Shown: positions 11,977 through 44,698, numbered from the stretch's first letter. The stretch: DNA of 64,000 nt from an uncultured Lachnospiraceae bacterium (GCA_964650305.1 CAZYST010000001.1:49953-113952), one strand, 5' to 3'. The notes: a model not told the origin generated them from the letters alone. Translations and numbers: made by a program.

Positions 11977-12508
11977 AAAATATATTTTTTATTTTATTTA
12001 TTACATTTTCTATAAAACCTGTATCTTCTTCTATAACAATTTCCTCTCCTTTAGGTTCTACGTAATCTGTTTTTGGAAGTGTTATATAAAAAGTTTGCTT
12101 ACTAGATAGTTTTTGCATACCTAATTGTTCTTTTGCAGCTTTTTCTATATTATTTATATTTTCACTATTTTGTATTGCTATTTCTAATTGATCATTTTCT
12201 TTTTGCAAATTTGTTACACTAGCTTTTAATTTTTGAATTTTATTAAAAGATTCATTAATTTGGGAGTTTCTATATATTATGATAAATAACATCGAAAATG
12301 ATATTAAAAGTAATATTAGAACTTGACCTTTAAATGCTACTTCTTCAAGCTTTTTATTTCTTTTTTCTACTTTAGCTTTGGCTTGTACTTTTTTATTTAA
12401 AGCAGTTGATTTTTTCTTTTTTATTTTTTTTCTTGGTCTATCTGTATATTCTGGTCTTATTTTTCTAGGACTAGTTTCAAATTGATAATCATAAGCACGA
12501 TTTACCAT
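11975..12508 (-). CDS. ftsL: Cell division protein FtsL-like (septum formation initiator)
   Basis: 177 aa: basic N-terminus, single TM, then a coiled coil (LKASVTNLQKENDQLEIAIQ). Positioned between rsmH and the PBP gene. Confidence 0.7.
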   Translation of the reverse strand: MVNRAYDYQFETSPRKIRPEYTDRPRKKIKKKKSTALNKKVQAKAKVEKRNKKLEEVAFKGQVLILLLISFSMLFIIIYRNSQINESFNKIQKLKASVTNLQKENDQLEIAIQNSENINNIEKAAKEQLGMQKLSSKQTFYITLPKTDYVEPKGEEIVIEEDTGFIENVINKIKNIF

Positions 12509-24020: not shown

Positions 24021-24944
24021 ATGGAAAATAAATCAAGATATAATCATTTAAATGAATACTTAAAAAACAAATTTGGAGAAAGAACATTAAAAATTTGTGT
24101 TGATGGAAATTTCACTTGTCCAAATAGAGATGGTACCATCTCACATGGAGGATGTATTTTTTGTAGTGAAAAAGGCTCAGGAGAACATATTAATTTTGAA
24201 GAAAATATCTCTAAACAAATTGAAAATTATTTTAAAAGTTATAAATCTGAAAGAGCAAATAAATTTATTGTATATTTTCAAAATTTTACAAATACATATG
24301 ATACTCTAGAAAATTTAAAAAAGAAATATGATTCTGCGTTAATAGATGATAGAATTGTAGGCATAGACATAGCTACAAGACCAGATTGTATAACAGAAGA
24401 AATTGCAAAACTTATACATAGTTATTCTAAAAATTATTATGTATCTGTTGAACTTGGTTTGCAAACATCAAACGATAAAATTGGAGATCTAATAAATAGA
24501 GGTTATTCTTCTAATCAATTTACAAATGCAGTTAAAATATTAAATAAGTATAATATTGATGTTATTGCACATATTATGATAGGCTTGCCTTGTGAAAATT
24601 TTGAAGACATTAAGAATACAGTTAATTTTATAAATAATCATAATATTAAAGGATTAAAAATTCATTCTACATATGTAGTTAAAAACACTGTTTTAGCTGA
24701 TATGTATAGCAAAAAAGAATATCTTCCCATTTCTTTAGAATATTATTTGGATAATTTATCATATATTTTAACACATATAAATCCAGATATTATTATTCAT
24801 AGAGTGTCTGGAGATGCTCCAAAAGACATACTTTTAGCACCTAAATGGAACCTACATAAAAAATGGATTCTTAATGGATTAGATAAATTAATGAAAGAAA
24901 AAAATTTATGGCAAGGAAAATTTTTTACGTCACCATCTACTTAA
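24021..24944 (+). CDS. Radical SAM protein, TIGR01212/YhcC-like
   Basis: CPNRDGTISHGGCIFCS cluster. 307 aa, a size typical of the family. Confidence 0.75.
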   Translation: MENKSRYNHLNEYLKNKFGERTLKICVDGNFTCPNRDGTISHGGCIFCSEKGSGEHINFEENISKQIENYFKSYKSERANKFIVYFQNFTNTYDTLENLKKKYDSALIDDRIVGIDIATRPDCITEEIAKLIHSYSKNYYVSVELGLQTSNDKIGDLINRGYSSNQFTNAVKILNKYNIDVIAHIMIGLPCENFEDIKNTVNFINNHNIKGLKIHSTYVVKNTVLADMYSKKEYLPISLEYYLDNLSYILTHINPDIIIHRVSGDAPKDILLAPKWNLHKKWILNGLDKLMKEKNLWQGKFFTSPST

Positions 24945-24949
24945 ATAAA

Positions 24950-24989
24950 AGAAAAATCCACAAATAAATATTAATTTGTGGATTTTTCT
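24950..24989. terminator. Bidirectional terminator
   Basis: Perfect 10-bp stem atccacaaat/atttgtggat (24956-24983), flanked by A- and T-runs. Lies between convergent genes. Confidence 0.7.
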
Positions 24990-24990
24990 T

Positions 24991-27900
24991 TTATTTAAAA
25001 TTTTTAATTAATTCTTCTTCATCAATTTCTTTATTAACTAATAAATATTCTACAACTTTATCAACTTTTTTCATATTGTTTTTAATTAAGTCTAATGTTT
25101 CATCATAACATTGCTTTAATATTTTATTCATTTCTTCTTGAACTTTTTCTGTTAAATAATTGTCAGGATTTATAATTTGTCCTAATCCTAGGTCTGACAT
25201 ACCATATTTTGTAATCATATTTTTGGCTATATAGCTAGCATGTTCTAAATCAGAAGTATTTCCATTTTCAAATTCACCAAAGTATAATTGTTCAGCTGCC
25301 ATACCACCTAATGATACTTTGATATTATTAAGTAAAGTAGTTTTTGAAGATGTATAACTTGTATTTCCACTATGTCTCACATATCCTAAAGTACCCGTAC
25401 CTTCAGGATTTATTGTTATTTTCTTTATTCCTGGCTCTTTAAATAATAATAATCTTATACAAGCATGACCAATTTCATGTACAGCCGTTTTCTTTAAATC
25501 CTCTTCTGTTATTTTTTCTACATCTATCATTCCTTTTCCAGCAAATATCACAGATGTCATTTCCTTTATAGTTGGAATATCTTCTTTTTGAATATTTCCA
25601 ATCTTTTTGTTTTCATTTTTAGCATGTTTCATTAATATTTCTTGTAATACTTTATCTACAAATCTACCATTTCCAATATTTTCAACATTTGCAAAATATT
25701 TCATAATCTTTTCTACATTTTCTTTTGAATCTTCTGTTATTGACATTCCAGCTTTATAAATTTTTTTATATAAAATTTCTGCAAGCTCTTTATCTGTGTA
25801 GTCTTGAAAATCAAAAGTATATCCTATTCTTGATGCTATTCCAGAATTCATAGCAATAAAATCTTTCATTTCTTTTTTATATCCAGCAAAAATTACTATA
25901 AATTCGCCTTTATGATCTTCCATTGCCTTTATTAATGTAGTTATTGCTTCTGAACCAAAATCATTTTTGTTTCCTGCTAAGGCATATGCTTCATCTATGA
26001 AAAGTACTCCACCCATAGCACGGTTAATAACTTCTGATGTTTTCTTTGCAGTTTGACCAATATATTCTGCAACTAAATCTTTTCTTTCTACTTCTATTAA
26101 TTTATTTTCATGAACAATACCTAAATCTCTTAACATTTTTGCCATAATTCTCGCTATTGTTGTTTTTCCAGTTCCTGGATTTCCAGTAAATATCATATGC
26201 ATATTTTGATTTGGAATGTTTAATTTATGCTTTTCTGCCTCTTTTAAAAATTCCATATATTGTTCAAATTCAATAACTTTTCTTTTTAAATCTTCCATTC
26301 CAACTATATCTTTTAATAATTCTTTTGTATCTTTTATTTCTGCATCATTTCTTGCATTATTTAAATCTTCTATTTCTGGAATGTCTTCTTTTGTTATTAA
26401 TCTTATATTTTCGCTATTTAGTTTTGAATGTTTCATTATTACTTCTTGTATTAATTTATCTACAAATCTACCATTTCCAAAATCTTTTCTTTTTGAAAAA
26501 TATTTGCATATATTATTTAATTTTAAGTCTACTGATTTATCTATTTCAAATCCCATATTATTCATTTTTTTATAGAAAATTTGTATTAATTCATTTGGAG
26601 TATAATCTGGGAAGTCAAAAGTATATCCTATTCTTGATCCTATACCTGGATTGCTATCTATAAATGTTTGCATTTCATTTCTATAACCTGCAAAAATAAC
26701 AACTAAATTATCTTTGTGATCTTCCATAGCTTTTATTAATGTTGCTATCGCTTCTGAACCAAAATCTCTTTCACCTTTTCCAGCAAGTTCATATGCTTCA
26801 TCTATGAACAAAACTCCGCCCATAGCTTTTTCTATTACTTCTGCAGTTTTAGTAGCTGTTTGCCCTATATAATTTGCAATTAAATCTTTTCTTTCTACTT
26901 CTATCAATTTATTTTCTTTTATGATACCTAAATCAAATAGCATCTTAGCCATAATTCTCGCTATTGTTGTTTTACCAGTTCCTGGATTTCCAGTAAATAT
27001 CATATGCATATTTGTACTATTTAAAGTAATTCCTTCTGATTTTGCTTTCATCTGAAATAACATATATTTTTCAAATTCAGCTACTCTCTCTTTTACAATT
27101 TTCATTCCAATAATATTTTTTAAGCTTTCTTCAATAGTTTCTTTTTTATATATATTTTCTGGAAATGTAATCTTTTTCTTAGAATTACTATATATAGCCA
27201 AATAATTTGCAAGTTCTATATCAGAAAGTGGTATAAAATTTTTGTTTAAACTTATATACTCTATAAATTGTTTTTTATATTTTTCATAATCTTTTCTTGC
27301 AATTTCTAATAAATCTGGTTTTAAAGTTTTAATATATGCTTTATATATTTCATCTATAGAAGGATCTGGTAATATTAATCTTGAGTTTTTATAAATAAAT
27401 TGTAATCTAGGTTCTATTTCTAACAAATTTTCAATTTCTTCTTTCGTTCCATTTATAATAATATAATTGTTTTTATTAATTTTAGTTAATAATTCAAAAG
27501 TATGTTCAAATTGTTTTTTTCTAATTTCAACTGTACCACCTAAAACAGTATTGTTTTTGTATTTTTTATAATCTTCATAAAATTCTTCTATACCATCTAC
27601 TACATATAAAACTTTTTCTTCAAGTTCTGTATATTTTACAGCACTTTCTACTTGATAAAGTACATTATTAATATCTGTTACTTTAGAATTACTTTTATTA
27701 GTATAACTATATGCATTCGAAGCAGCTAAATTCAGTAGTGATATTCTTTCATATTCTTCTTTATTTGTTTTTCCAAGTTTATATAATAAACTTGATATTT
27801 CTGATACAAATTTATTCTTTCCAATATTATCATTTCCTTCTATTGTACAATGTAAATTTGTTTGATTTGGATTTAAAAGTATGTCTGTAAAATCTTTAAA

Positions 27901-29346
27901 ATTGATTATTTTTTCATCATATTCTTTTTTTAAATTTTCTAAATAATCATTTTTTTGATTTTCCATTTTTTCAATCTTATCAGATTTTATTTTTTCATTT
28001 TCTAAATCAATTTCTTCTTTATTTTCTAAATAATATTTTCTATCAGCTATAATTAAATCTTCTCTTCCTACTGTTTTTAGATATTGAATATATCCAGCAA
28101 CTAAAATTGGACACGAATTTAATCTACATGAAAAAGTATCACAAAGACCTATTTTACAATTTGTATTTCTTTTAATTGATACCCAATCTGAAAATTTTCT
28201 ATCATATTTAAGAATTTCTTCTGTTTCATATAATGTATATTCTGAACATTTTATTGCAGTTAAAATTTTAACTTTTCCATTATCTGTTAGACAACGATCA
28301 ACATATATACACTCTTTATCAACCAATTTTTCAGCAAATTCAAATATGTTTTGAGGTATTTTTTTTAGCCCATCCTCTACATTCCATACAAATGCATATT
28401 TATCATTTATATTTAATTTATCTTTTCTAAATTTTTCTCTTTCTTGTAATTTTTCTTTTAATTTTCCTGTATTTCTTAAATATAATATATATCCTGCAAT
28501 GTGCTTTGGACATTTTTCATATTCACATTTATAACAAAGTTTTTCTATAGATTTATCTTTATTAGCAGTAAAATCACTTTTTGAATCAGTAAATATCTTA
28601 TTTCCTTTTGATTTTAAAATATCTAATAATTCATTTGTAGTAAAACTTTCATCACACAAGTTTCTTACATTCGTGCTTACACATATTTTTTCTGTTTTTG
28701 CATCTTTTAGTATTTTTAGACTAAAATTACCTTTTTCTAGTAGCTTATATGCCAGTTCTAAACTTTTATCTGATATGTATTTTAATTCATTTGTTTGTTT
28801 CCATTCAAAATCATAATTTTTTTCTTCTGATCCTTTTGGAAAAATATATGGATTAAATTTTTCTGTATATTCATATCCGTAAATAATATTTAATTCTTCT
28901 GTTACTTCATTAATAAGTATATTTTCATATTCGTATATACTATCTGTCAATTTTTCAATATTTTCTTTATATTCAAGTGTATCTAAATCTATTCTTTTAA
29001 AATTTTGTGCAAAATAAAAAATTTTTACAAAAGCTTGTAATACATTTTCAAATTTAGAATCCGTATAATTTACAATTTCAGTATCATTAATTATTATTTT
29101 ATTTTCTTCTGCTATATATTGACTTAGTGTATATTCTTTTAAATCATATTCTCCCCAAGTAGCAAGTTCTAAAATATTATCGTTTTTTTCAAAAATTGGA
29201 AACAATGCTTTTAAATTATCATTATCCGTTAAAAATTTAGGAAAAAAAATACAATATTCTTTATCAGCGCTATTTTTCTTTTTCCAGTTGTTTAATATTG
29301 CCTCTAATAAAGTTATTGCATTTTTAATATCTTTTTCTTTATCCAT
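24991..29346 (-). CDS. 1451-aa soluble multidomain protein: two Cys-cluster (SWIM-like) modules, one degenerate and two intact SpoVK/CbbX-type AAA+ modules, and a C-terminal FtsH-type M41 zinc protease
   Basis: CYKCEYEKCPKHIAGYILYL and CDTFSCRLNSCPILVAGYIQYL. Degenerate P-loop GNDNIGKN. GNPGTGKTT with VLFIDEAY occurs twice. HEIGHA...LGGMAAEQLYFGE...TSDLEHAS. No TM segment is evident. Confidence 0.8.
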   Translation of the reverse strand: MDKEKDIKNAITLLEAILNNWKKKNSADKEYCIFFPKFLTDNDNLKALFPIFEKNDNILELATWGEYDLKEYTLSQYIAEENKIIINDTEIVNYTDSKFENVLQAFVKIFYFAQNFKRIDLDTLEYKENIEKLTDSIYEYENILINEVTEELNIIYGYEYTEKFNPYIFPKGSEEKNYDFEWKQTNELKYISDKSLELAYKLLEKGNFSLKILKDAKTEKICVSTNVRNLCDESFTTNELLDILKSKGNKIFTDSKSDFTANKDKSIEKLCYKCEYEKCPKHIAGYILYLRNTGKLKEKLQEREKFRKDKLNINDKYAFVWNVEDGLKKIPQNIFEFAEKLVDKECIYVDRCLTDNGKVKILTAIKCSEYTLYETEEILKYDRKFSDWVSIKRNTNCKIGLCDTFSCRLNSCPILVAGYIQYLKTVGREDLIIADRKYYLENKEEIDLENEKIKSDKIEKMENQKNDYLENLKKEYDEKIINFKDFTDILLNPNQTNLHCTIEGNDNIGKNKFVSEISSLLYKLGKTNKEEYERISLLNLAASNAYSYTNKSNSKVTDINNVLYQVESAVKYTELEEKVLYVVDGIEEFYEDYKKYKNNTVLGGTVEIRKKQFEHTFELLTKINKNNYIIINGTKEEIENLLEIEPRLQFIYKNSRLILPDPSIDEIYKAYIKTLKPDLLEIARKDYEKYKKQFIEYISLNKNFIPLSDIELANYLAIYSNSKKKITFPENIYKKETIEESLKNIIGMKIVKERVAEFEKYMLFQMKAKSEGITLNSTNMHMIFTGNPGTGKTTIARIMAKMLFDLGIIKENKLIEVERKDLIANYIGQTATKTAEVIEKAMGGVLFIDEAYELAGKGERDFGSEAIATLIKAMEDHKDNLVVIFAGYRNEMQTFIDSNPGIGSRIGYTFDFPDYTPNELIQIFYKKMNNMGFEIDKSVDLKLNNICKYFSKRKDFGNGRFVDKLIQEVIMKHSKLNSENIRLITKEDIPEIEDLNNARNDAEIKDTKELLKDIVGMEDLKRKVIEFEQYMEFLKEAEKHKLNIPNQNMHMIFTGNPGTGKTTIARIMAKMLRDLGIVHENKLIEVERKDLVAEYIGQTAKKTSEVINRAMGGVLFIDEAYALAGNKNDFGSEAITTLIKAMEDHKGEFIVIFAGYKKEMKDFIAMNSGIASRIGYTFDFQDYTDKELAEILYKKIYKAGMSITEDSKENVEKIMKYFANVENIGNGRFVDKVLQEILMKHAKNENKKIGNIQKEDIPTIKEMTSVIFAGKGMIDVEKITEEDLKKTAVHEIGHACIRLLLFKEPGIKKITINPEGTGTLGYVRHSGNTSYTSSKTTLLNNIKVSLGGMAAEQLYFGEFENGNTSDLEHASYIAKNMITKYGMSDLGLGQIINPDNYLTEKVQEEMNKILKQCYDETLDLIKNNMKKVDKVVEYLLVNKEIDEEELIKNFK

Positions 29347-29422
29347 ATTTTATCTCCCACAAATTCTTTTGTATTAATATATAACTTATGTATTTTTATC
29401 TATATATATTTTAACATTACTA

Positions 29423-29471
29423 AATAAAAAAGCAAACTAAATATAAATATATTTTACATATAGTTTGCTTT
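29423..29471 (-). terminator. Terminator after clpB
   Basis: 9-bp stem agcaaacta/tagtttgct with a large loop. T-run follows on the minus strand. Confidence 0.5.
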
Positions 29472-29479
29472 TCATAAAA

Positions 29480-32071
29480 TTATTTAATATATAAATTGTT
29501 GTTTTCAGCATCAATAGTAACAGTAGACATTGGAGAAATCTTTTGATTTAATATACTTTCAGCAATCAAAGTTTCTAATTTTTTCTTAACAAATCTCTTT
29601 AAAGGTCTTGCACCATAAATTTGATCATATCCATTTTCTATTAAATATATTTTAGCATTTTCTGTTAATTCTAATTTAATATGTTTATCATCTAATCTAT
29701 TTTCTAAATCTTTAATTAATAATTCTAATATTTTAGAAATTTCATCTTTCTTAAGTGGTTTATAAAATACAATTTCATCTAAACGATTTAGAAATTCAGG
29801 TCTAAAACTTCTTTTTAATAATTCATTTACTTTTTCTTTAGCTTCTTCTGAAATATCTCCATTGCTATTTATACCATCTAATATAAAATCTGAACCTAAA
29901 TTTGAAGTAAGAATTATAATAGTATTTTTAAAATCTACTGTTCTTCCTTGTGAATCCGTAATATGTCCATCATCTAAAACTTGAAGTAATATATTAAATA
30001 CATCTGGATGTGCTTTTTCTATTTCATCAAATAAAACTACTGAATATGGTTTTCTTCTAACTGCTTCTGTTAATTGACCACCTTCTTCATATCCTACATA
30101 TCCTGGAGGTGCACCAATTAAACGAGAAACTGAATATTTTTCCATATATTCAGACATGTCAATTCTTACCATATTGTGTTCATCATCAAATAAACTTTCC
30201 GCTAAACTTTTAGCAAGTTCTGTTTTACCTACACCTGTTGGACCTAAAAATAGGAATGAACCTATAGGTCTTCTTGGATCACTAATACCAGCTCTTGAAC
30301 GCATAATAGCTTCTGATACATCTTGAACTGCTTCATCTTGCCCAATAACTCTTTTATGAAGAATATCTTTTAAATGCAATATTTTTTCTCTTTCACCTTC
30401 CATAAGTTTAGTAACAGGTATTCCTGTCCATCTAGATATAATTTTAGCTATTTCATCTTCTGTTACTTTGTTTCTTAAAAGTCCATTTTCTTTATTTTTT
30501 TCACTTTCTATTTCTTCTGCTTCTAATTGTTTTTGAAGTTCTGGTAATTTTCCGTATTTTAACTCTGCCGCTTTATTTAGTTCATAATTTCTTTCTGCTT
30601 GCTCTATTTGCGAATTTACTCTTTCAATTTCTTCCCTTAATTTTTGTACTTTTTCTATTGCAGATTTTTCATTTTCCCATTTTGCTTTCATACTATCAAA
30701 TTTAGATTTTAATTCTGATTTTTCTTTTTGTATATCTTCTAGCCTTTGCTTTGATATTTGATCATTTTCTTTACTTAAAGCTCTTTCTTCTATTTCAAGT
30801 TGCATTATTTTTCTTGAAACCTCATCAAGTTCAGTAGGCATTGATTTCATTTCTGTTTTTATCATTGAACAAGCTTCATCTACTAAATCTATAGCTTTAT
30901 CTGGCAAAAATCTATCTGAAATATATCTATGAGATAGTGTTGCTGCAGCTATTAAACTATTGTCTGAAATTTTTACACCATGATAAACTTCATATCTTTC
31001 TTTTATTCCTCTTAAAATTGATATTGTATCCTCAACTGTTGGTTCATCTACCATTACAGGTTGAAAACGTCTTTCTAAAGCTTGATCTTTTTCTATATAT
31101 TGCCTATATTCATTTAATGTAGTTGCACCAATACAATGTAATTCACCACGTGCAAGCATAGGTTTTAATAAATTTCCAGCATCCATTGCACCTTCTGTTT
31201 TTCCAGCACCAACAATTGTATGAATTTCATCAATGAATAATATTATCTTTCCTTCACTTTTCTTTATTTCTTGAAGAACTGCTTTTAATCTTTCTTCAAA
31301 TTCACCTCTATATTTTGCACCTGCTACAAGTGAACCCATATCTAATGAAAATATTGTACAGTCTTGTAAATTTTCTGGAACATCTCCTCTTACAATTCTT
31401 AAAGCTAAACCTTCTGCTATTGCTGTTTTACCAACACCAGGTTCACCAATTAAACATGGATTATTTTTAGTTTTTCTTGATAATATACGTATTACATTTC
31501 TAATTTCTGTATCTCTACCTATTACAGGGTCCAATTTTTGTTTACGAGCCATATCAACTAAATCTTGACCATATTTTTCAAGAACATTATATGTGCTTTC
31601 AGGATTATCTGATGTTACTCTTGTATTTCCTCTTACACTAGATAAAACTTTTAGAAAACTATTTTTTGTTATATTAAAAGTTTTAAACAATTCTTTTAAC
31701 TCTTTGTTTGGATTATCTATCAAAGAAATCATTATATGTTCTACAGAAACATATTCATCATTCATCTTTTTAGCTATTTCTTCTGCATTTGAAAATACTA
31801 TATCAACATCTTGTGATATATACATGCTATCTGCTCTTCTTGCACCACCAGTCATTTTAGGTTTATTTTTAATTTTATTTCTTACCTCAGTTTCAAAGTT
31901 ATTTGATATTCCCATTTTCTTTAGAAGTTCTTTTATTAAACTTTCATCTTGCTCTAATAAACTAAGCAATATGTGTTCTTGATCTAATTGAGCATTTTGA
32001 TTTTCTATTGCTAAATTTTGTGCATTTTGAATTGCCTCTAAGGATTTTTGAGTAAATTTTTGAATATTCAT
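29480..32071 (-). CDS. clpB: Chaperone ClpB (two-AAA disaggregase)
   Basis: Clp N domain, GEPGVGKTA and GPTGVGKTE Walker A motifs, and a long M-domain coiled coil. AGGAAAG RBS before ATG 32071 ([10 protein letters not shown]...). Confidence 0.93.
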
Positions 32072-32256
32072 ATTTCTCACTTTCCTTACATTATATTTAT
32101 AGTGTTTAAAGTCTACTATATAGGACTTATAGCATATTTTTATATGTGCTATTTTATTTTGATAATATTTTGCTTTTTTATACATAGCAATTTATTATGT
32201 TTTAAAAGCACAATCATACGAACTGTAGAATGTGCTTTTCTTTATTTACAAGAATA

Positions 32257-32599: not shown

Positions 32600-33316
32600 A
32601 TGGTAGATCCTTATGTTTTAAAAAATGGTACATTAAGAAATAAACTAAATATTAGAAATTATGAAAAACTAAATGCAGCACAAAGAGATATTACATTTAC
32701 AAAATTCTTAAACGTTTCTAAACAATTTCGCTCAAAATTTGATATTAATTATTTTAAATCAATTCATAAACATATATTTGAAGATATATTTGATTGGGCT
32801 GGTGAATTTAGATGTGTACCAATTTATAAAGAAGAAGTAGTTATTCCTAAACTAAGTCTTGATTACACCCCTTATCAAGATATTGAAAAAGAATTACAAT
32901 CTACTTTAGATGAAATGAATAGTACAAATTGGGATGCACTTTCACTTGAAGATAAAGCAAGCCTATTTACAAAAGACCTTGCAAAACTTTGGAAAGTTCA
33001 CCCTTTTAGAGATGGAAATACTAGAACAACACTTACATTTGCCAAACAGTTTTCAGAAGAGCATAATTTTCCATTAGATTTAGGATATTTATTAGATAAT
33101 TTATCTAGAAAATATGATGAAAATGGAAAAATTACACAATATAGCATTAGAGATAAATTTGTATTAGCAGCACTTCCAGAAGAATATTATCCAGAACCTG
33201 AACATCTGACTCATCTTATACATGAATCTATGAAATCAGGAATTTCAAAAAATATAAAATCTTTACAAGATACACTTTACGGAAAAGAACCAGATAATGA
33301 TGAAATAGATAGATAA
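32600..33316 (+). CDS. Fic/Fido-domain protein with variant active-site motif
   Basis: HPFRDGNTRTT compared with canonical HPFx[DE]GNGRxxR. Confidence 0.8.
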   Translation: MVDPYVLKNGTLRNKLNIRNYEKLNAAQRDITFTKFLNVSKQFRSKFDINYFKSIHKHIFEDIFDWAGEFRCVPIYKEEVVIPKLSLDYTPYQDIEKELQSTLDEMNSTNWDALSLEDKASLFTKDLAKLWKVHPFRDGNTRTTLTFAKQFSEEHNFPLDLGYLLDNLSRKYDENGKITQYSIRDKFVLAALPEEYYPEPEHLTHLIHESMKSGISKNIKSLQDTLYGKEPDNDEIDR

Positions 33317-33326
33317 AAATAAAATT

Positions 33327-33361
33327 AGCTCCAAATTTATAGTAATTTGGAGCTTTTTTTA
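33327..33361 (+). terminator. Rho-independent terminator after fic
   Basis: Perfect 10-bp stem agctccaaat/atttggagct followed by T7. Confidence 0.8.
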
Positions 33362-33403
33362 TTTAATAGTCAAAATCTGCGATTTTTCCTATTAAACAAG
33401 AAT

Positions 33404-33502
33404 AGCTGTCCGACAGACAGCTCTGCACAGCTTGAAAGCAGAGCTTTCAACGAGTAAGACAAAAGAGCTATTTGTCGGACATATGTCCTACAAACAGCTC
33501 TT
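33404..33502. other. GC-rich multi-hairpin non-coding element
   Basis: Hairpins at 33404-33422 (7 bp), 33420-33444 or alternatively 33432-33450 (7-8 bp), and 33463-33502 (16 bp in three segments). In addition, tgtccgaca (33407) is complementary to tgtcggaca (33473). Confidence 0.5.
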
Positions 33503-33525
33503 CCGATTCTTATTTTTTAATATTT

Positions 33526-34224
33526 CTATTTATTTGATAGTATTTCAAATATTTCTTTTGCTAAAGTACATACTTTTGGTTCTATGCTATTTATTTTGCT
33601 TGTCCTATCAAGTGCTGAATATATTGATATATAACTTATTTTATTAATTATATCTTTTAGATTAGCTACATCTCTATACTTAGCTAACATATATGCTATC
33701 GCATATTTTATCATCTTAATATCATTTAAGTGAAATTGCTTTAAGTTAGTTTTTTCTACTATCTTTCCTACCTCAAAGAATGGAAATTCACCAAATCTTT
33801 CGATTATTACTTTTTTAGCTTCCCTTATATCTAAATTTGTGAATCCTGAATCTTTAAATTTGATATCTGGTAATTCTTCTAATATAGATTTATATTCTTT
33901 TGTATTTTCTAAATCTATTGTTTCGTAATATTTTATATAAGTCCTATATGGTAGATTCAAACCTTGCCATTCTTCTTCGATTAGTTCCGCATCTACTAAT
34001 TCTTTATGAATTTTAGTTGCAGTATTAGCACATATTTTTAATTCATTCATTATGTACTTTCTTGCATTTTCTATATACTTGTATCCCATTTCGTCTTGTT
34101 TTACATTGATATTTCCATTTAGCATATGCACATATATCCCATATGCTACTTTTGCATTTAAGCTTACTCCTTTTAAATATTCTCCATCAAATAAATAGTT
34201 ATAAATTTTGTATTGTTGTTGCAT
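33526..34224 (-). CDS. RepA_N-type replication initiator-like protein
   Basis: N-terminal pattern YKIYNYLFDGEYLKGVSLNAKVAYGIYVHML...LKICANTATKIHKELVDAELI fits RepA_N wHTH proteins of Firmicutes plasmids/ICEs. AGGAGG RBS 7 nt before ATG 34224. Confidence 0.55.
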   Translation of the reverse strand: MQQQYKIYNYLFDGEYLKGVSLNAKVAYGIYVHMLNGNINVKQDEMGYKYIENARKYIMNELKICANTATKIHKELVDAELIEEEWQGLNLPYRTYIKYYETIDLENTKEYKSILEELPDIKFKDSGFTNLDIREAKKVIIERFGEFPFFEVGKIVEKTNLKQFHLNDIKMIKYAIAYMLAKYRDVANLKDIINKISYISIYSALDRTSKINSIEPKVCTLAKEIFEILSNK

Positions 34225-34346
34225 AAACATTCCTCCTTTTTTCTATTCTTAAATTTTAATATCTTTTGTATCTCAAAATCTTGGATACTATCTCTCCCAC
34301 ACATCTTATTTTTTAATATCCAAGATTCTTATCTTTTGTGATTTGT

Positions 34347-34550
34347 TTATTCATTTGTTATAGAAGCTTTTTCTTTTTCATTTAAGTATTTATCTAGTGC
34401 TTCTTTTCTAAATAATACTTTTCCTCCAACTCGTGAGCATGGTATTTGTTTTCTCCTTACCAGTTGTGTAACTAACCAATATGATACTCCTAAATACTCT
34501 GCTGTCTCTTTCATTGTTAGAGTTGTTCGTGTTACTTTCTCAAGTTCCAT
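34347..34550 (-). CDS. Excisionase-family/MerR-like HTH DNA-binding protein
   Basis: LTMKETAEYLGVSYWLVTQLVRRKQIPCSRVGGKVLFRKEALDKYL. AGGTGAG RBS before ATG 34550. Confidence 0.7.
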   Translation of the reverse strand: MELEKVTRTTLTMKETAEYLGVSYWLVTQLVRRKQIPCSRVGGKVLFRKEALDKYLNEKEKASITNE

Positions 34551-34720
34551 ATTACTCACCTGCCTTTCTTGTAATTGTATTGACATTTGATGTTATTGCT
34601 AATATAATATTGTTATACAATTACTAATTATATTTTAATTGTAGGCGTACTGTTTAGTAAAGCAGACAATGAAAGATTATATAAAATAATTTTAAATTGT
34701 AGGAGCATTTAGGAGGTTTT

Positions 34721-35713
34721 ATGTTTTATTATAATATTGCATTTGATTATGAAAAAATGAATGAATTTCTTTGCTATTATACGACAAAAAATAGAAATAA
34801 TAATATTTATTCATTTACTCAAGCAACCACAAAGCAAGAACTTGGTAGCTTTTTAATAGAATTTTTAAATACTGATTTTAGAAAAAGGAAAAATTTTGAC
34901 AGCTTTGTAACAAAATATTCTTTTATTGATTTATATGCTAAATTGCTATCTAAGAAGTTTAATGAAAAATCTATTTTCTCTTTTAAGTTTACGAATGAGG
35001 AACTGCAAAATCTGTTAGATAATATGTATGAAAAATATTCTGAAGATTTTATTGTATTTGGAGAAATTTTTAGAGATATAGCAAATACCAAGAGCAGATA
35101 TAAGTTATTAAGTAATTTATCTAGAAGTGAAAATTCTAAAGTGGCTGAAACATTTGATATTAAAGCATACAACCTATCTACTAAAGATTATAGGCAACAA
35201 TTAGAAGAATACTCAGATTTATTTGATGATATATGTGTAGATTTCCGTATGATAGATTTTATAGGACTATATGAACAAAATAATATTACAAATGAAATTC
35301 CTTATTCTTTTAGAAGTAAAGACCTTTTAAATATTATATATTTATCATTTAAGCATATTGAATGTTATAAGCATCCCATTTTACAATGTGAAAATTGTAA
35401 AAAGTTATTCATACCAGACTCTGCACACGATATTAAATATTGTAATAATATATTTAAAAATAATAAGACTTGCAAGCAACTTGCACCTGAACTTAAATAT
35501 CAAAAAACTTTAAAAGCTGATCCAGTACTACAAAAATATCGTTCTAGATATCAAGCTATTCAAAGATTAGCAAGAGAAAATCCAGAAAAGCACCAAGCAT
35601 TATATGAATATTATAAAGTTGAAGGCAAAAAAATGAAAAACGAATATTTAAGTAAGGTTATAACAGCTAAAGAATTTGAAGATTGGATTGATACTACAAA
35701 AATAAGGAAGTAG
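34721..35713 (+). CDS. Hypothetical protein with a C-terminal Cys cluster (zinc-ribbon-like), element cargo
   Basis: 330 aa. CENCKKLF...YCNNIFKNNKTC. AGGAGG RBS before the ATG. A diverged remnant copy lies at 36779-36982. Confidence 0.55.
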   Translation: MFYYNIAFDYEKMNEFLCYYTTKNRNNNIYSFTQATTKQELGSFLIEFLNTDFRKRKNFDSFVTKYSFIDLYAKLLSKKFNEKSIFSFKFTNEELQNLLDNMYEKYSEDFIVFGEIFRDIANTKSRYKLLSNLSRSENSKVAETFDIKAYNLSTKDYRQQLEEYSDLFDDICVDFRMIDFIGLYEQNNITNEIPYSFRSKDLLNIIYLSFKHIECYKHPILQCENCKKLFIPDSAHDIKYCNNIFKNNKTCKQLAPELKYQKTLKADPVLQKYRSRYQAIQRLARENPEKHQALYEYYKVEGKKMKNEYLSKVITAKEFEDWIDTTKIRK

Positions 35714-35742
35714 ACTTTTAAAGTTTACTTCCTTATAACTTT

Positions 35743-36672
35743 TTATTTTAAATAATACTCTATCATATTTGCATATTGATCTTGTGCATTTAGGCAAGTA
35801 TCAATTAAAAATCCTTTCTCATTTTTATATTCTTTTAACCCTCTATAATAAAACAATTTATCTTTATCTAAAATAATAAATGGAACTATATTATTTTTTA
35901 AACATTCCTTAAATGCTATAATTCTTCCTACTCTTCCATTACCATCTTGGAATGGATGTATTCTTTCAAATTTAAAATGAAATTCTATTATTTCTTTTAT
36001 AGTTATTTTTTCTAATGTATTATACCATTCCATTAGTTTAGCCATATCTCTAGCTACATTTTTAGGAAGAGAGGTTTGTATATTTCCTGCTTCATTAGCT
36101 AATTTTTTATATTCTCCAACATTAAACCATTCTTTTCTGCTATCAGATGTTCCTTCTTTTAAAATTTTATGAAATTCTTTTATCATTTCTTCTGTTAATT
36201 TTTCTTCAGCTACATCTAGCATATAATCAACTAATTTAAAATGATTTGCTGTTTCTAATATGTCATCTACACTAGCTACTGTTTGACCTTCAAATAAAAT
36301 TGTATTAGTTTCAAAAATATATCTTGTTTGATCTTCAGTTAGTTTACTTCCCTCAATATGATTTGTGTTGTATGCAAATATAACTTGTGTATTATGATAT
36401 AAGTTTCCTTTTAGTCCCATTTCTTTTTGCTCTTTTAAGCATTCTAAAATATCTAATTTAGAAATATCAAATTTCTCATCTTCATTTTTTAATAACTCAT
36501 CTATTGTTATTCCAAATGTTTCTGCTAATCTTTTTATTGATTCTATATTCGGTTCTATCATTCCAGATTCATATTTTGATATTGTTCCTGGCTCTACTCC
36601 AAGAATTTCTGCAATATCTTTTTGAGTCATTTTTTTACTTTCTCTATATGCTTTTATTCTTTCTCCTAACAT
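35743..36672 (-). CDS. XRE-family HTH fused to a class II Fic domain
   Basis: N-terminal MTQKDIAEILGVEPGTISKYESG. Internal inhibitory motif TNHIEG ([ST]xxxE[GN]). Canonical HPFQDGNGRVGR. Confidence 0.85.
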   Translation of the reverse strand: MLGERIKAYRESKKMTQKDIAEILGVEPGTISKYESGMIEPNIESIKRLAETFGITIDELLKNEDEKFDISKLDILECLKEQKEMGLKGNLYHNTQVIFAYNTNHIEGSKLTEDQTRYIFETNTILFEGQTVASVDDILETANHFKLVDYMLDVAEEKLTEEMIKEFHKILKEGTSDSRKEWFNVGEYKKLANEAGNIQTSLPKNVARDMAKLMEWYNTLEKITIKEIIEFHFKFERIHPFQDGNGRVGRIIAFKECLKNNIVPFIILDKDKLFYYRGLKEYKNEKGFLIDTCLNAQDQYANMIEYYLK

Positions 36673-36778
36673 AATAAAATCACTCCTTTTTCGTATATTA
36701 ATATTATATCATATTATTTCCAAAAAAGAAAGTGATTATTCGCTTTTTGTTTTGTTGTTTCCATGTGAGATATTTTGA

Positions 36779-36982
36779 TATTATACCATATTCCCAAAGA
36801 ATTATTTTAATGCAATTACATCAAAATGCCCGCCCATTTTGAAATCTCATACTTGTCTAACCTCTAAATCTAACCATATATACAAGTATTATAAAAAGGA
36901 AGGTCCTGTAATACAATACAAATATAAAAACGTATTAATTTCAGTCGAACAATTTAAGATTGGATTAATAGTACAAAAATAA
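36779..36982 (+). pseudogene. Start-less, internally deleted remnant of a paralogue of ORF 34721..35713
   Basis: The open frame reads ...KCPPILKSHTCLTSKSNHIYKYYKKEGPVIQYKYKNVLISVEQFKIGLIVQK*. The intact gene reads CNNIFKNNKTCKQ...DPVLQKY...ITAKEFEDWIDTTK. The tail DNA matches about 24 of 28 nt. Confidence 0.5.
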
Positions 36983-37000
36983 AGGAACTTTACGGTTCCT

Positions 37001-37606
37001 TTATACTCCCTCATTTCTTGTTTGAAACCACTCATGATTTTCTATTCTCATATAATATACCGTTAATTTTGTATACAACATATAACATGCAAATTGTGTC
37101 AACGATGCTACTCGTTTTACAATCTCTCTATCTAAAGCTGTTTTTATAACATTACGATTAAATGCTTCACTTTGTGAAAAATCCACAAAATAATTGTCTA
37201 AAAAAGAGTTTTTAAAGCACATCTTAGCCGAATAAACATTATCCTTTAAATCTCTTTTTTCATCATCATTAAACGTACCTAAACTTATATCAAAAAGAGG
37301 CGCTATTATTATACTTTTATCACGTTGTAAATCACATGTATTACTTAATATTATGCCTTTCGTCATATATGTAGTTGTGGTTCCATCTTCATTTTTTATT
37401 GAAAATGGTATTTTATCAACAATATCTCCTTGACTCAATTCATTTAAAAGACTAGAACAAAACCAACTATGTTGAGTCATATCAATTTGTTTAACAGCAT
37501 CGCGTACTGCATTTTTAATTTCTGTATCAATTGATGGAAATAAACGATTACAATATTCACTAAAATATCTAAGCATAGTAATCAAAGAAATTATTTTTTG
37601 GTTCAA
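37001..37606 (-). CDS. Hypothetical protein, gene 3 of an unknown three-gene cassette
   Basis: 201-aa ORF that overlaps gene 2 by 38 nt, or by 8 nt if it starts at M11 (37576). No motif recognised. Confidence 0.5.
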   Translation of the reverse strand: MNQKIISLITMLRYFSEYCNRLFPSIDTEIKNAVRDAVKQIDMTQHSWFCSSLLNELSQGDIVDKIPFSIKNEDGTTTTYMTKGIILSNTCDLQRDKSIIIAPLFDISLGTFNDDEKRDLKDNVYSAKMCFKNSFLDNYFVDFSQSEAFNRNVIKTALDREIVKRVASLTQFACYMLYTKLTVYYMRIENHEWFQTRNEGV

Positions 37607-37886
37607 CAGCTAATTTTTTTATAATAACTTCTTGAGAATCTTTCTCAGATTTACCAAAAAACTTTTCATCTTTATACATTTGCATTATTAATTCTTTTTC
37701 AGACATATTACAAACATTTGCAGAAATGTAATATTTTCCATCATCTGAAAAAGTAGCATTATATATATTTTTTAATTTAAAATCATCCAAATTAATACAC
37801 CTAACATAAGCATATTCAGGCTGTGAATATTTATGAATATCTTTAGGTATATCTGCTGAACAAGAACTAAAAAACATATTGTTCAT
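37569..37886 (-). CDS. Hypothetical small protein, gene 2 of the cassette
   Basis: 105-aa ORF lying 8 nt after the gene 1 stop. The likely start is M4 (37877), given GAAAGGA RBS spacing. Confidence 0.45.
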   Translation of the reverse strand: MNNMFFSSCSADIPKDIHKYSQPEYAYVRCINLDDFKLKNIYNATFSDDGKYYISANVCNMSEKELIMQMYKDEKFFGKSEKDSQEVIIKKLAVEPKNNFFDYYA

Positions 37887-37894
37887 CCTTTCTA

Positions 37895-38647
37895 TTAATT
37901 AATCTTTCCCGTATCTACAAAAACCTCGATTTTATTTTGCAAATCATCTCTAACTGTTAAAAACATATTCTTTATGATTTCTGTATTATTAGTATAATTT
38001 TCATTACTATCAAAGCTATATTTATCATTCAACTCATAGCTTATTGAAATATACTCTTTTGTGATTGTTGCATCATTCAAAGAAATCAACGGAAATATTA
38101 TTGTATTCTGACCTGGTGTAATTTGTTTTTGCATAGTAAAATCTTTAGAATTATTAATGGTCAAAATTCTATAATATTTATTATCAATTACCATAGATGC
38201 TCTCATACCAACTTCACTAAAAGTATTTTCATTAACAGACGAATTTAAAAGATTTTGTTGTATTGTTTGAATCGGATTTTCAACTTCTTTTTCTAAATTT
38301 ACAAACACAGCAGAATATAATACTTTTACTTCTTTTGATATTAATAGATTATATATTTTACTTGCTCTCTCTTCCATATAATCTATACATTTAGAAAAAT
38401 CTTCATTAAAATTCCCATCATAATTTGTTGTTATTTGCACATTAATTGTTGACATATTAAATATAGTATGTCCTGATTTAGATTGCGAATTAATTCTAGG
38501 AACTATTGGATCTACATTGGCTGGTAATCCCATATAATTAAATGCTGGAAAGTATTCTATTAATTTAGAATTTAGCTCTTCAAAGATTCCTTTAGTATTA
38601 TCATATTTTTCAAACCAAAATGTAACAACAATATTTTTTATTTTCAT
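37895..38647 (-). CDS. Hypothetical protein, gene 1 of the cassette
   Basis: 250-aa ORF with a GGAGAATGAATAATG RBS/start. Appears to be a two-lobed beta-rich protein. No catalytic motif recognised. Confidence 0.5.
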   Translation of the reverse strand: MKIKNIVVTFWFEKYDNTKGIFEELNSKLIEYFPAFNYMGLPANVDPIVPRINSQSKSGHTIFNMSTINVQITTNYDGNFNEDFSKCIDYMEERASKIYNLLISKEVKVLYSAVFVNLEKEVENPIQTIQQNLLNSSVNENTFSEVGMRASMVIDNKYYRILTINNSKDFTMQKQITPGQNTIIFPLISLNDATITKEYISISYELNDKYSFDSNENYTNNTEIIKNMFLTVRDDLQNKIEVFVDTGKIN

Positions 38648-38895
38648 TATTCATTCTCCTTTAAATATATATCCGAAATAATTATATCATTTATTAAATA
38701 TTTTTTCCACTTTTTTTAAAAAATATTGCATTTTATACATCTTTACCATACACTTTCATATTATTTTTCCAAAACATCCGTTGTCGGTTAGACTTTTACA
38801 TATTTCACATTGTATAATTAATGTATACAATCTTTAACTTGTAATTTCATTGTAGATTACAAAAATACTCTCTCCCACACAGGAAGGAGGATAAT

Positions 38896-40096
38896 ATGGC
38901 AGGGAGTATAGAAAAAAGAGGCGAAAATACATATAGGTTAGTATATGCATGTGGGTACAACCTAGATGGTTCTATCGCCAAGTACACTAAAACAGTGCAT
39001 TGTAGTAAAAAGGAAGCAGAAATCGAACTTGCTCAGTTTGTTACTAAAATACAAAATGGTATGGTTGCTGAACCTAAGTCTATAACTTTCAAAGACTTTG
39101 TTGAAATCTGGAAACGAGATTATGGTACAAAAGATTTAGCACCTGGTACTTATGCAAGATATGTTAGAATTTTAGAAACTAGAATTCTTCCCTACTTTGG
39201 TAAGTTCAAGTTAGATAAGATTAAACCAACAGACATTATGAAATTTTATGACATGTTAGAAAATGATACACAGATCAAAAGACTTAAAAATAACAGAGGT
39301 GAAAGATTATCTAAACCACTATCTAAGAAAACTATTTTAGAACATCACAGGTTACTTAGAGCAATGCTTCACAAAGCTGTTTACTGGCAACTAATTGCAA
39401 ATAACCCAGCAGAAAGAGTTCAACTACCAAAAGCTAAGAAACCTAAAAGAAGATATTACGATGATGAACAATGCAAACTTCTATTAGAAAATCTTGAAAA
39501 TCAAGAATTAAAATACAAAGTAGCTATTACAATAACAATATTTACTGGAATGAGACTTCGGTGAACTTCTAGGACTAGAATGGTCTGATATTGATTTTAA
39601 CAATGGAATAATTAGTATTAACAAATCTAGTCAATATTTATGTGATAAAGGAATATTTACCAAGACACCTAAAACTGATAGTTCAATTAGAGATGTTGCA
39701 GTGCCTACATTTGTTATTTCTCTACTTAGTGAGTATAAGTTATGGTATGATGAACAAAAAGCTTTGTATGGCGAATTATGGATTAATTCAGATAGGTTAT
39801 TTGTACAAAACGATGGCAAACCAATGCACCCATCTACAATTAGTAAATGGTTTGTAAAATTTGTTAAAGAATGTGGTCTTCCTGAAATTAGCTTTCATGG
39901 ATTAAGACACACAAATGCTACACTACTAATATCTCAAAATATAGATGTTGCAGCTGTAGCAGCACGACTAGGACATGCACAAATTTCAACTACATTTAAT
40001 TTTTATGTGCATCCTGTTATTTCACACAATAAAGTTGCAGGAAATGTTTTAGAAAATTTATTAATACCAGGAAAAAATATAGAAAATCTAAATTGA
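38896..40096 (+). pseudogene. int: Tyrosine recombinase (phage-integrase family) disrupted by a +1 frameshift near 39556-39560
   Basis: N-terminal MAGSIEKRGENTYRLVY... The frame ends at ..FTGMRLR* (39564). It continues in the next frame as GELLGLEWSDIDFNNG...HGLRHTNATLL...LGHAQISTTFNFYVH, which supplies the R, HxxR and Y catalytic residues. Confidence 0.8.
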
Positions 40097-44691: not shown

Positions 44692-44698
44692 ATTCCCA

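Follow-up and report, generated by a model that had tools for sequence, protein, structure and literature searches.

What kind of machine is encoded by a 1451-aa open reading frame in which an FtsH-type protease domain is joined to ATPase modules of the SpoVK/CbbX type, and what could such a machine be for? The ORF lies in a 64,000-nucleotide stretch of DNA (the window, to which all coordinates refer) from an uncultured gut Clostridia bacterium, and the initial annotation had described its product as a giant soluble fusion of two Cys-cluster modules, three AAA-like modules and an M41 protease. The ORF exists at the length given there, with the correction that it is encoded on the minus strand. 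The gene, its product and its flanks comprise the following features, in the direction of transcription:

29427..29473, minus strand: hairpin and U-run between clpB and the protease gene (-18.7 kcal/mol, z -4.8)
29354..29358, minus strand: GGGAG ribosome-binding site, 7 nt 5' of the ATG, read from sequence
24991..29346, minus strand: whole ORF, 1451 aa plus stop codon, ATG start
28879..29346, minus strand: optional N-terminal domain, aa 1-156 (AlphaFold model, alignment, domain HMM mapping)
28417..28821, minus strand: Cys4 module 1, aa 176-310 (alignment, model, hhalign)
28012..28416, minus strand: Cys4 module 2, aa 311-445 (alignment, model, hhalign)
27919..28020, minus strand: long single helix leading from the Cys modules to the ATPase stack, aa 443-476 (AlphaFold secondary structure)
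27142..27909, minus strand: degenerate (pseudo) AAA module D0 with lid, aa 480-735 (Foldseek, hhalign, alignment)
26347..27141, minus strand: active AAA module D1, CbbX/SpoVK type, aa 736-1000 (Pfam, NCBIfam, alignment)
25597..26334, minus strand: active AAA module D2, CbbX/SpoVK type, adjoining the protease, aa 1005-1250 (Pfam, alignment)
25562..27013, no strand assigned: DNA-level tandem duplication corresponding to modules D2 and D1 (spacing 804-807 nt, 72-83% identity)
25009..25512, minus strand: Peptidase_M41 domain, aa 1279-1446 (Pfam PF01434, E 3.5e-30; T. maritima FtsH)
25465..25479, minus strand: HEIGH zinc-binding and catalytic motif, aa 1290-1294 (invariance and FtsH alignment)
24944..24995, minus strand: perfect 22-bp hairpin with U-runs, overlapping the stop codon of the protease gene (-25.2 kcal/mol, z -9.4)

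The gene is real and intact: its reading frame runs without interruption, a protein in an NCBI-derived collection (P0001) is 100% identical to its product, and every motif quoted in the initial annotation is present in the translation. It lies directly downstream of clpB (29480..32185) on the same strand, as had been stated, and its description as a terminator-separated unit of its own agrees with the hairpins and U-runs found on both sides. The upstream hairpin is a probable clpB terminator, while the one overlapping the stop codon is probably a bidirectional terminator common to the protease gene and a convergent radical-SAM gene. A simple terminator scanner reported no terminator at either flanking hairpin, probably because both are AU-rich and the clpB one is also broken by internal bulges. 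A functional link to clpB was not supported by comparison, as no neighbour is conserved among the other loci examined and the clpB adjacency is not shared; in each species the gene occupies a different neighbourhood. It is a stand-alone accessory gene, outside any operon. Its product contains no hydrophobic segment that could serve as a membrane anchor (maximal Kyte-Doolittle mean of 1.1 in a 19-residue window, versus 1.9-3.0 for canonical plasmid FtsH controls), in agreement with its original description as soluble.

The C-terminal protease domain is the feature most readily recognized, and its assignment to FtsH-like M41 enzymes with intact catalytic residues holds. The Pfam match covers profile positions 3-188 of 191, and the domain matches T. 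maritima FtsH (3kds/2ce7) along its whole length (E about 2e-21), with HEIGH (HEIGHA, aa 1290-1295) in register with FtsH HEAGH and SDLE with NDIE; the segments LGGMAAEQLYFGE and TSDLEHAS were likewise found in the translation. Residues H1290, E1291, H1294 and D1366 (a candidate third ligand, in TSDLE) are invariant in 15 aligned sequences, as is E1352, and no intact family member examined departs from HExxH, the Asp or the conserved Glu. The unit formed by the last AAA module and the M41 domain spans 447 aa, of which 97-98% aligns colinearly with canonical FtsH (26-28% identity), and in a rough NJ tree the M41 domains of the family form a clade separate from six canonical FtsH sequences. The FtsH_fam model (TIGR01241) matches the C-terminus only (profile positions 396-598, 114 bits versus a cut-off of 600), whereas control FtsH proteins align from position 4 to 598 with 510-550 bits.

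The two tandem AAA modules were originally assigned to the SpoVK/CbbX type, with which NCBIfam, the nearest solved structures and the signatures of this clade all agree. The Pfam scan finds two AAA domains and AAA_lid_6 besides Peptidase_M41, the best NCBIfam ATPase models are SpoVK, CbbX and EccA, and the solved structures nearest to the AAA pair are those of CbbX (E 1.5e-54) and EccA1 (E 2.6e-45). GNPGTGKTT and VLFIDEAY each occur twice, forming Walker A (786-794 in D1, 1055-1063 in D2) and Walker B (845-852 and 1114-1121); the pore-loop tyrosines are Y826 and Y1095, followed by FAGY (885-888 and 1153-1156), R905 and R1173, and GNGR (957-960 and 1225-1228). Y826 aligns with CbbX residue 114 (3syk numbering), which we take to be the pore-loop Tyr114 reportedly found by Mueller-Cajar et al. 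in 2011 to be functionally required. The sensor-1 GY signature (G887/Y888 and G1155/Y1156), the arginine-finger motif (N899...R905 in NPGIGSR, N1167...R1173 in NSGIASR) and the sensor-2 Arg (R960 and R1228) are invariant. The spacing from Asn to Arg is 6, versus "4 residues upstream" in the text of a 2024 survey of the clade (PMC11513918), the motif being the same as in CbbX (snpgfrsr). The SpoVK equivalog model (TIGR02881) yields 491 bits for the whole protein, a value summed from two stretches; taken singly, the AAA modules reach about 245 bits each (245.5 for the one scored exactly), where the cut-off is 422.95, and every one of them scores below the SpoVK and CbbX equivalog cut-offs. The protein is thus not a SpoVK orthologue, and its N-terminus is unrelated to the short N-terminal domain of SpoVK.

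The degenerate module proposed alongside these two is genuine and stands first in the order. It carries GNDNIGKN (aa 504-511) and VLYVVDG, CbbX structures (3zuh/3syk) are the top Foldseek matches of the AlphaFold model computed for aa 1-735, over about 285 columns (E 6e-6), and a profile-profile comparison with an active module by hhalign gives a probability of 93.9%. The same model has weak Foldseek matches to Clp ATPases as well. Between species, first AAA modules are orthologous to first ones and last to last, and each tier would therefore have a conserved role.

The N-terminal third opens with a domain that combines a beta-sheet with long helices in the AlphaFold model and is missing from family members of about 1300 aa. 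It is followed by the two repeats with Cys clusters noted at the outset, which are homologous (hhalign probability 99%, E 9e-18) and have four invariant cysteines apiece: C231, C271, C274 and C279 in the first, followed by P280, K281 and the helix AGYILYL, and C367, C402, C407 and C412 in the second, followed by the helix AGYIQYL. The cluster segments are CYKCEYEKCPKHIAGYILYL (aa 271-290) and CPILVAGYIQYL (aa 412-423), and the pattern across the family is C-x(34-39)-C-x2/4-C-x4-C. The modules presumably bind zinc. The label "SWIM-like" given to the first of them was not sustained, as neither the query nor any of 13 family members has a SWIM (PF04434) match in Pfam at E<=1 and homologues have I, P, Y, A or L in place of the His after CPK; the CxCxnCxH signature of the SWIM zinc finger is absent as well. 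Residues 1-445 match no Pfam family at E<=10, and a confident model of the Cys modules (pLDDT 87.8) retrieved PDB and BFVD matches no better than E 0.02 from libraries that may hold few or no SWIM structures. The Cys4 modules are new, without a detectable relative.

The architecture is not confined to a single genome. Among characterised proteins, none was found to share it. The family is rare, 1.84 billion proteins having yielded about 163 representative clusters, its hosts are gut Clostridia, and its members are annotated solely as "AAA family ATPase". All share a core of a pseudo-AAA module, one to four AAA modules and M41, preceded by variable N-termini with 0-3 Cys modules; in the present protein the order is optional N-domain, two Cys4, pseudo-AAA, two active AAA and M41. 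At least 19 species-level MAG loci and many metagenome contigs show the same domain junctions. Frameshifts occur in three family lineages. In one of these (L025/L026, 12 contigs), a 1-nt insertion falls within the HExxH codons and the long ATPase ORF is kept, which may mean that the ATPase part is useful in its own right, with no protein cleavage, or that the gene is in decay. Sequenced phages and plasmids yielded no family member, the matches there being ordinary FtsH.

Taken together with the mechanisms of FtsH and CbbX, these features make it probable that the product is a soluble, self-compartmentalising, ATP-dependent zinc metalloprotease of hexameric stacked rings, in which the N-terminal modules choose the substrates. 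By analogy to the FtsH and CbbX hexamers, six protomers would join via their M41 domains and AAA modules into a stack of rings. The inactive CbbX-like ring D0 would act as a structural collar, and the active rings D1 and D2 would grip a polypeptide by the pore-loop tyrosines and thread it, driven by ATP, into the terminal M41 chamber, to be cut at the HExxH/Asp zinc site. The N-terminal part atop the stack, comprising the optional domain and the two tandem, presumably zinc-binding Cys4 modules, is the portion that varies across the family, and may select a narrow set of substrates or adaptors.

The resemblance to FtsH lies in a C-terminal M41 zinc peptidase (HExxH plus Asp) fused directly after an AAA module and its lid, and a hexameric thread-and-cut mechanism would be expected here likewise. 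However, FtsH has two TM helices flanking an extracytoplasmic (periplasmic) domain, both absent from the present protein, and a single AAA module of its own type in place of three tandem AAA-like modules of SpoVK/CbbX type and about 480 aa of N-terminal modules. Several ATPase tiers on one polypeptide are found in the type II stacked-ring machines ClpA, ClpC, ClpB and p97, and a protease on the same chain in Lon, which is soluble, and in FtsH; the type II machines and Lon belong to other AAA clades and work with other proteases (ClpP Ser, Lon Ser-Lys). To our knowledge, none of them combines CbbX-type tiers with M41.

Within the SpoVK-EccA-like AAA+ clade of CbbX (the red-type Rubisco activase), SpoVK and EccA, which all three ATPase modules match best in both sequence and structure, the common signatures are the GY sensor-1, the NPGxxSR arginine-finger, the GNGR sensor-2 and the pore-loop Tyr, and recruitment is presumed to fall to a variable N-terminus, as here. 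Its known members have a single ATPase module (with added TPRs in EccA) and no protease, in contrast to the tandem ending in M41. The 2024 survey (PMC11513918) describes them as specialised in remodelling, with substrates recruited by variable N-termini, and found no peptidase fusion or association among them. The "FtsH ternary" MoxR-vWA conflict systems (Kaur et al. 2020, PMC7159879) resemble the present protein in having a dead N-terminal AAA copy followed by an active one, sometimes with a family-specific N-terminal domain. They are set in biological conflict and occur in delta-proteobacteria, actinobacteria and planctomycetes, where conserved operons unite their FtsH-type ATPases with MoxR and vWA proteins; no M41 fusion is described in the passages considered. 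Unlike them, the present gene has CbbX/SpoVK-type ATPases, gut Clostridia hosts and no MoxR/vWA neighbours, MoxR AAA+/vWA being absent from the top 25 Pfam families of 85 neighbour proteins from 19 loci and from the gene's neighbours in the window.

These 85 neighbour proteins are mostly housekeeping and are not enriched for known defence families. PADLOC 2.0 gave no specific defence match, with generic AAA similarity only (IetA and TRIP13, E 1e-17 to 1e-20). Mobile or conflict-type contexts appear as scattered hints around some relatives only. One member (P0024) adjoins a DUF2357 protein and an ATPase-like protein of 1234 aa; short relatives occur within elements carrying DUF6076 and serine recombinases, and one of these relatives shares its gene row with a TPR protein and an ADP-ribosyl-toxin-like protein. 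About 3 kb from the window gene lies an island with Fic, RepA_N, DUF6076, a split integrase, an ApeA-like protein and CRISPR-Cas9, its DUF6076 being 32% identical to that of another locus (L033). The L033 copy sits among the spoIIID, yabG and sipL genes, adjoining a recombinase and DUF6076 element and not inside a sporulation operon.

Could the fusion be an assembly chimera, the refuting condition named in the initial annotation, or a mis-called fusion of adjacent genes? The gene is very long and its internal DNA repeats could in principle mislead assemblers. On the other hand, its frame is open throughout, the repeats have diverged, the modules keep their positional orthology from one species to another, and the full architecture recurs in independent metagenome assemblies, which therefore leaves an artefact with a negligible chance. 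It is also quite improbable that the protein is a non-proteolytic remodeller, in which the CbbX-type modules would be the chaperone and M41 would serve hexamerisation only, in the manner of the plant FtsHi pseudo-proteases. Pseudo-proteases typically lose the very HExxH, Asp and conserved Glu that are retained in all intact members examined, although the L025 lineage keeps its ATPase ORF despite the frameshift in HExxH. A further argument against the proteolytic reading is that the CbbX-clade ATPases characterised so far are chaperones (PMC11513918), which remodel their targets and do not degrade them.

The biological role is a separate matter. A single-gene defence or conflict effector, whose N-terminal modules would sense a phage or mobile-element protein and whose AAA-M41 stack would degrade it or host proteins (abortive infection), is compatible with the proposed protease mechanism, and we consider it possible but doubtful. 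It accords with the rare and patchy distribution, the different neighbourhood in each species, the fast diversification of N-termini and AAA copy number, the recurring frameshifts, and the settings of P0024, the short relatives and the window gene itself; the generic nature of the PADLOC similarity, the mostly housekeeping neighbours and the absence from sequenced phages and plasmids speak against it. Of a similarly tentative standing is a dedicated housekeeping or regulatory protease with an endogenous cytosolic substrate, acting for example in stress quality control with ClpB or as a SpoVK-like sporulation factor. The immediately upstream clpB, the SpoVK model as the best ATPase match, the many housekeeping neighbours in other loci and the sporulation genes around the L033 copy all point this way. 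Yet clpB is separated by a terminator hairpin and neighbours the gene in no other locus examined, the single modules fall well short of the SpoVK cut-off, the L033 copy adjoins a mobile-type element, and both rarity and frameshifts in several lineages would be unusual for a core function.

A bolder and rather unlikely proposal takes the probable ATP-dependent protease further, as an immune protease of a new class that works alone, as a single polypeptide, in which rapidly diversifying N-terminal modules (Cys4 or others) would recognise a protein of a phage or mobile element and the stacked CbbX-type motor would feed that protein or host targets to M41; or, in a second reading, the AAA-M41 unit might be a surviving intermediate. 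If true, the latter would show that the SpoVK/CbbX/EccA chaperones descended from a soluble FtsH-like protease.

Weak structure matches were also obtained to entries 8xku and 8xqw of the Ycf2-FtsHi chloroplast motor, which shares with the present protein FtsH-related AAA modules, degenerate partners and M41-derived domains. That motor is a hetero-oligomer embedded in the membrane of a eukaryotic organelle, with inactivated M41 domains, whereas here the catalytic residues are intact.

A minus-strand ORF (24991..29346) with an ATG start, preceded by a ribosome-binding site (GGGAG), encodes a protein of 1451 aa in which all the sequence motifs quoted in the initial annotation were found. An identical protein (P0001) occurs in an NCBI-derived protein collection, on a 146-kb contig; the G+C content is 23.7% for the gene and 24.6% for the window. 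The finding is real, and the product is best called a putative soluble, multi-tier M41 protease with CbbX/SpoVK-type motors and novel Cys4 N-terminal modules. Conserved residues and domain matches show a single protein combining two catalytically complete CbbX/SpoVK-type motors, a dead third copy, an intact M41 active site and variable N-terminal modules, with no anchor.

The HMM scan suggested in the initial annotation returned, in Pfam, two AAA domains with AAA_lid_6 and a nearly full-profile match to Peptidase_M41 (aa 1279-1446, E 3.5e-30). For the ATPase part, SpoVK, CbbX and EccA ranked first among NCBIfam models, while FtsH_fam matched the C-terminal peptidase part only (profile positions 396-598). 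Among solved structures, CbbX (E 1.5e-54) and EccA1 (E 2.6e-45) were the nearest matches to the ATPase pair, which had no FtsH ATPase among its matches at E<=1e-10; for the peptidase the nearest was FtsH of T. maritima (E about 2e-21), whose HEAGH and NDIE align with HEIGH and SDLE, respectively. A 15-sequence family alignment revealed invariant Walker A lysine, Walker B Asp-Glu, FAGY sensor-1 motif, NPGxxSR arginine and GNGR sensor-2 arginine in both active modules (D1, aa 736-1000, and D2, aa 1005-1250), as well as invariant H1290, E1291, H1294, E1352 and D1366 in the peptidase. The pore-loop tyrosine is invariant in D2 (Y1095) and nearly so in D1, where at least 90% of the sequences keep Y826; this residue aligns with position 114 of CbbX (3syk numbering), the essential pore-loop tyrosine of that protein. 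Two active SpoVK/CbbX-type AAA modules and an FtsH-type M41 domain, as originally proposed, are thus supported by Pfam, NCBIfam and the invariant motifs.

For the N-terminal half, whose structure prediction had likewise been recommended, aa 1-735 were modelled with AlphaFold (mean pLDDT 81.8), and the model contained the following elements:

aa 1-156: alpha/beta N-domain, followed by a disordered linker
aa 176-445: two similar modules
aa 443-476: long helix
aa 480-735: AAA-like domain

The best PDB matches of the AAA-like domain (D0) were CbbX structures (Foldseek E 6e-6 to 4e-5 over about 285 columns), and a profile-profile comparison related it to an active module with 93.9% probability. Given this CbbX-like fold and profile, together with Walker A and B positions that are not kept across the family, D0 is a pseudo-ATPase tier, in agreement with the degenerate third module described initially. 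The two preceding repeats with Cys clusters proved homologous to each other (hhalign 99%, E 9e-18). Each has four invariant cysteines, the last three of which directly precede a conserved helix (CPK-x-AGYILYL). A dedicated model of aa 176-445 was confident (pLDDT 87.8, pTM 0.85). Its best matches, at E 0.14 in the PDB (a dsRBD-like topology) and at E 0.02 in BFVD, were not significant, and Pfam had no match to aa 1-445 even at E<=10. The "SWIM-like" label attached to the first repeat is not supported: the histidine of "CPKH" is unconserved, no Pfam SWIM match was obtained in 13 family members, and no fold match was found in the PDB or BFVD, which may include few or no SWIM structures. The Cys4 modules have no relative in Pfam or among the structures searched; they represent a domain not described before, presumably zinc-binding.

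The claim that the protein lacks a membrane anchor was confirmed by a Kyte-Doolittle scan, in which no 19-residue mean exceeded 1.1, as compared with 1.9-3.0 for canonical FtsH controls. Folding analysis also agreed with the proposed terminator-separated unit downstream of clpB: a hairpin with a U-run follows the upstream same-strand clpB (-18.7 kcal/mol, z -4.8), and another lies at the 3' end (-25.2 kcal/mol, z -9.4), common to the gene and a convergent radical-SAM gene. With strong hairpins on both sides the gene looks monocistronic. A consensus terminator scanner reported no terminator despite these hairpins, which we attribute to its stem and loop criteria. The listed clpB ORF (29480-32185, 901 aa) is itself probably over-extended at its 5' end: Clp_N begins only at aa 55, and the protein collection, which includes neighbouring window proteins, lacks this exact 901-aa sequence.

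A word-indexed search of 5.8 billion proteins yielded only 24 relatives (1019-1948 aa), named, if at all, only "AAA family ATPase"; when only the M41 domain served as query, a word-based search retrieved nothing beyond fragments of this family. The survey of distribution and gene neighbourhoods envisaged in the initial annotation was based on a one-genome-per-species scan (19 loci, all in gut MAGs of uncultured Clostridia, with human, rabbit, sheep and roe deer as hosts and titles such as "Clostridia bacterium" and "Clostridium sp. CAG:567") and on a profile of aa 176-735 run with HMMER exhaustively against 1.84 billion representatives, which gave 163 proteins with E<=1e-3. Mapping of our own domain HMMs onto the 163 proteins delineated a constant core (pseudo-AAA, one to four CbbX-type AAA modules and M41) behind N-termini that comprise zero to three Cys modules and may have or lack the N-domain, or that are unrelated in sequence. 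A profile of the last AAA module and M41 detected further proteins of 520-790 aa (AAA, lid_6 and M41), some labelled Oscillospiraceae or Eggerthellaceae, whose ATPase scores as SpoVK/CbbX type and whose FtsH match is confined to the peptidase. An assembly chimera, which the initial annotation had named as fatal to its reading, is excluded, as each domain junction is found again in assemblies made independently; we assign an artefact a negligible probability.

The number of active AAA modules per family member is 1, 2, 3 or 4. First modules group together across species, as do the protease-proximal ones, and the additional modules in between are derived from the first type. Within the window, the DNA of the active modules (25562-27013) is 72-83% identical over ~600 nt at a spacing of 804-807 nt; this repeat is a likely substrate for unequal recombination, which would explain the variants with one to four modules. 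In three lineages the homologues are interrupted by +1 frameshifts, beyond which homology continues in the new frame:

L025/L026: about 10900-10910
L007/L008: about 12030-12090
L030/L031: about 7001-7040

At the first of these homologue loci 12 contigs have a single C inserted in the HEVGH codons (CAT GAA GTA C GGT CAT), within HExxH. In the L007 type, the piece downstream of the frameshift is 577 aa long and is present on 50 contigs. The frameshifts may reflect decay, functional split or programmed frameshifting.

FtsH is an AAA ring over an M41 ring that threads substrates by pore loops, and CbbX is a hexamer that draws a substrate tail into its pore. By analogy with both, six protomers would form stacked D0, D1, D2 and M41 rings, the N-terminal modules would choose substrates, and unfolding and processive cutting would follow; the hexamer stability that the membrane anchor provides in FtsH would here come from the M41 ring and the additional tiers. 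We consider such a soluble stacked-ring ATP-dependent M41 protease the probable molecular picture. That the protein is instead a non-proteolytic remodeller appears quite improbable.

The biological role is a separate matter. A role in conflict or with mobile elements is possible, if doubtful, and a dedicated role on an endogenous substrate is put forward just as tentatively. The family's restriction to uncultured gut Clostridia, together with its varied architecture, suggests a function specific to the niche and perhaps related to conflict, and some family contexts have a mobile or conflict flavour: short relatives adjoin DUF6076 proteins and serine recombinases (the two lying side by side at L030 and L033), one short relative is preceded by a TPR protein and an ADP-ribosyl-toxin-like protein, and other loci have a HEPN-type pEK499_p136 protein or proteins with DUF4116 or Sel1 as neighbours. 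On the other hand, the flanking proteins of the 19 loci are mostly housekeeping; Pfam and PADLOC analysis of these 85 proteins disclosed no recurrent neighbour family, and in all-against-all clustering of ORFs from the window and 24 loci the gene itself was the sole shared member. For the protein PADLOC gave only generic AAA matches, so a known defence system was rejected, and tblastn against sequenced plasmids and phages returned no relatives, only canonical TM-anchored FtsH or lone SpoVK-like ATPases. For the distant representatives P0107 and P0183 the contigs are too short to read gene context. Functional coupling to clpB as a conserved feature was also rejected, as clpB adjoins the gene in the window only, beyond a terminator hairpin, and no ClpB lies near any homologue.

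Several individual loci share this mobile or conflict flavour. At L027 (1619-7508), P0024, a distant relative with another N-terminus and an unchanged AAA-AAA-M41 layout, is preceded by an ATPase-like protein of 1234 aa and a DUF2357 protein of 723 aa, which may constitute a restriction-like system. SpoVG fused to SUFU, SseB or DUF4272 lies directly upstream of three- and four-module members (L004 5126-7267, L025 2413-5157). DUF6076 occurs near three members of the AAA-M41 superfamily (window 34721-35713; L030 9071-10150; L033 3100-4113), and the window protein is 32% identical over its full length to that of L033, which lies beside a short relative.

In its predicted working mode the protein resembles FtsH, and 97-98% of the unit formed by the last AAA module and M41 aligns colinearly with FtsH; nevertheless, of four features by which FtsH is defined, the 1451-aa protein lacks three: the TM anchor, the FtsH-type ATPase and a score above the model cut-off. 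A rough neighbour-joining tree placed the family M41 domains in one clade apart from six diverse FtsH sequences, which fits a single origin and would be compatible with ancient retention and old re-fusion alike. The family ATPases display all three SpoVK-EccA-like clade signatures (PMC11513918), although they are not orthologues of SpoVK or CbbX. That clade has been described as chaperones and as the sister group of FtsH ATPases; in contrast to other classical AAA+ groups, the authors state for it that "we found no evidence" of fusion to, or association with, peptidases (PMC11513918). The AAA-M41 family is a counter-example to this statement. Tandem inactive and active FtsH-type ATPases are reported from MoxR-vWA conflict operons by Kaur et al. 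2020 (PMC7159879); the layout is analogous but clade, partners and hosts differ from those of our family. In line with the initial impression that no characterised protein has this architecture, searches of the searchable literature found no description of SpoVK/M41 fusions or soluble FtsH-like proteases of this kind.

Energy-dependent bacterial proteolysis is usually taught as ClpXP/ClpAP/ClpCP, HslUV, Lon, FtsH and the proteasome. The family would extend this list by a soluble M41 protease with a motor from another clade and two to five stacked tiers, a result of purely computational basis that would surprise AAA+ specialists. It also opens a testable evolutionary question: since the SpoVK/CbbX/EccA clade is described as sister to FtsH ATPases, its origin becomes directly testable through the AAA-M41 family, namely whether the clade lost an ancestral protease or the family re-acquired one. 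For mechanistic work, FtsH and YME1L have to be truncated or given engineered hexamerisation, and a naturally soluble FtsH-type protease could make such work simpler.

The window itself also has a context of mobile or conflict flavour: just past clpB it carries a remnant integrative element or defence island (32600-40096), with no convincing flanking att repeats and a uniform base composition in the region:

32600-33316: Fic
33526-34230: RepA_N
34721-35713: DUF6076
35743-36672: HTH-Fic
38896-39564 and 39701-40096: tyrosine integrase, split into two ORFs

Rfam at gathering thresholds assigned no RNA family (no tRNA, rRNA, riboswitch or T-box) in the whole 64 kb. Further along lies a type II CRISPR-Cas locus (43269-49498):

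43269-44691: CRISPR array, about 21.6 units with a period of 66 nt
44789-45109: cas2
45102-46007: cas1
46085-49498, minus strand: cas9

Between the integrase remnant and the array, a 463-aa protein (40575-41966) contains an ApeA_NTD1 domain.
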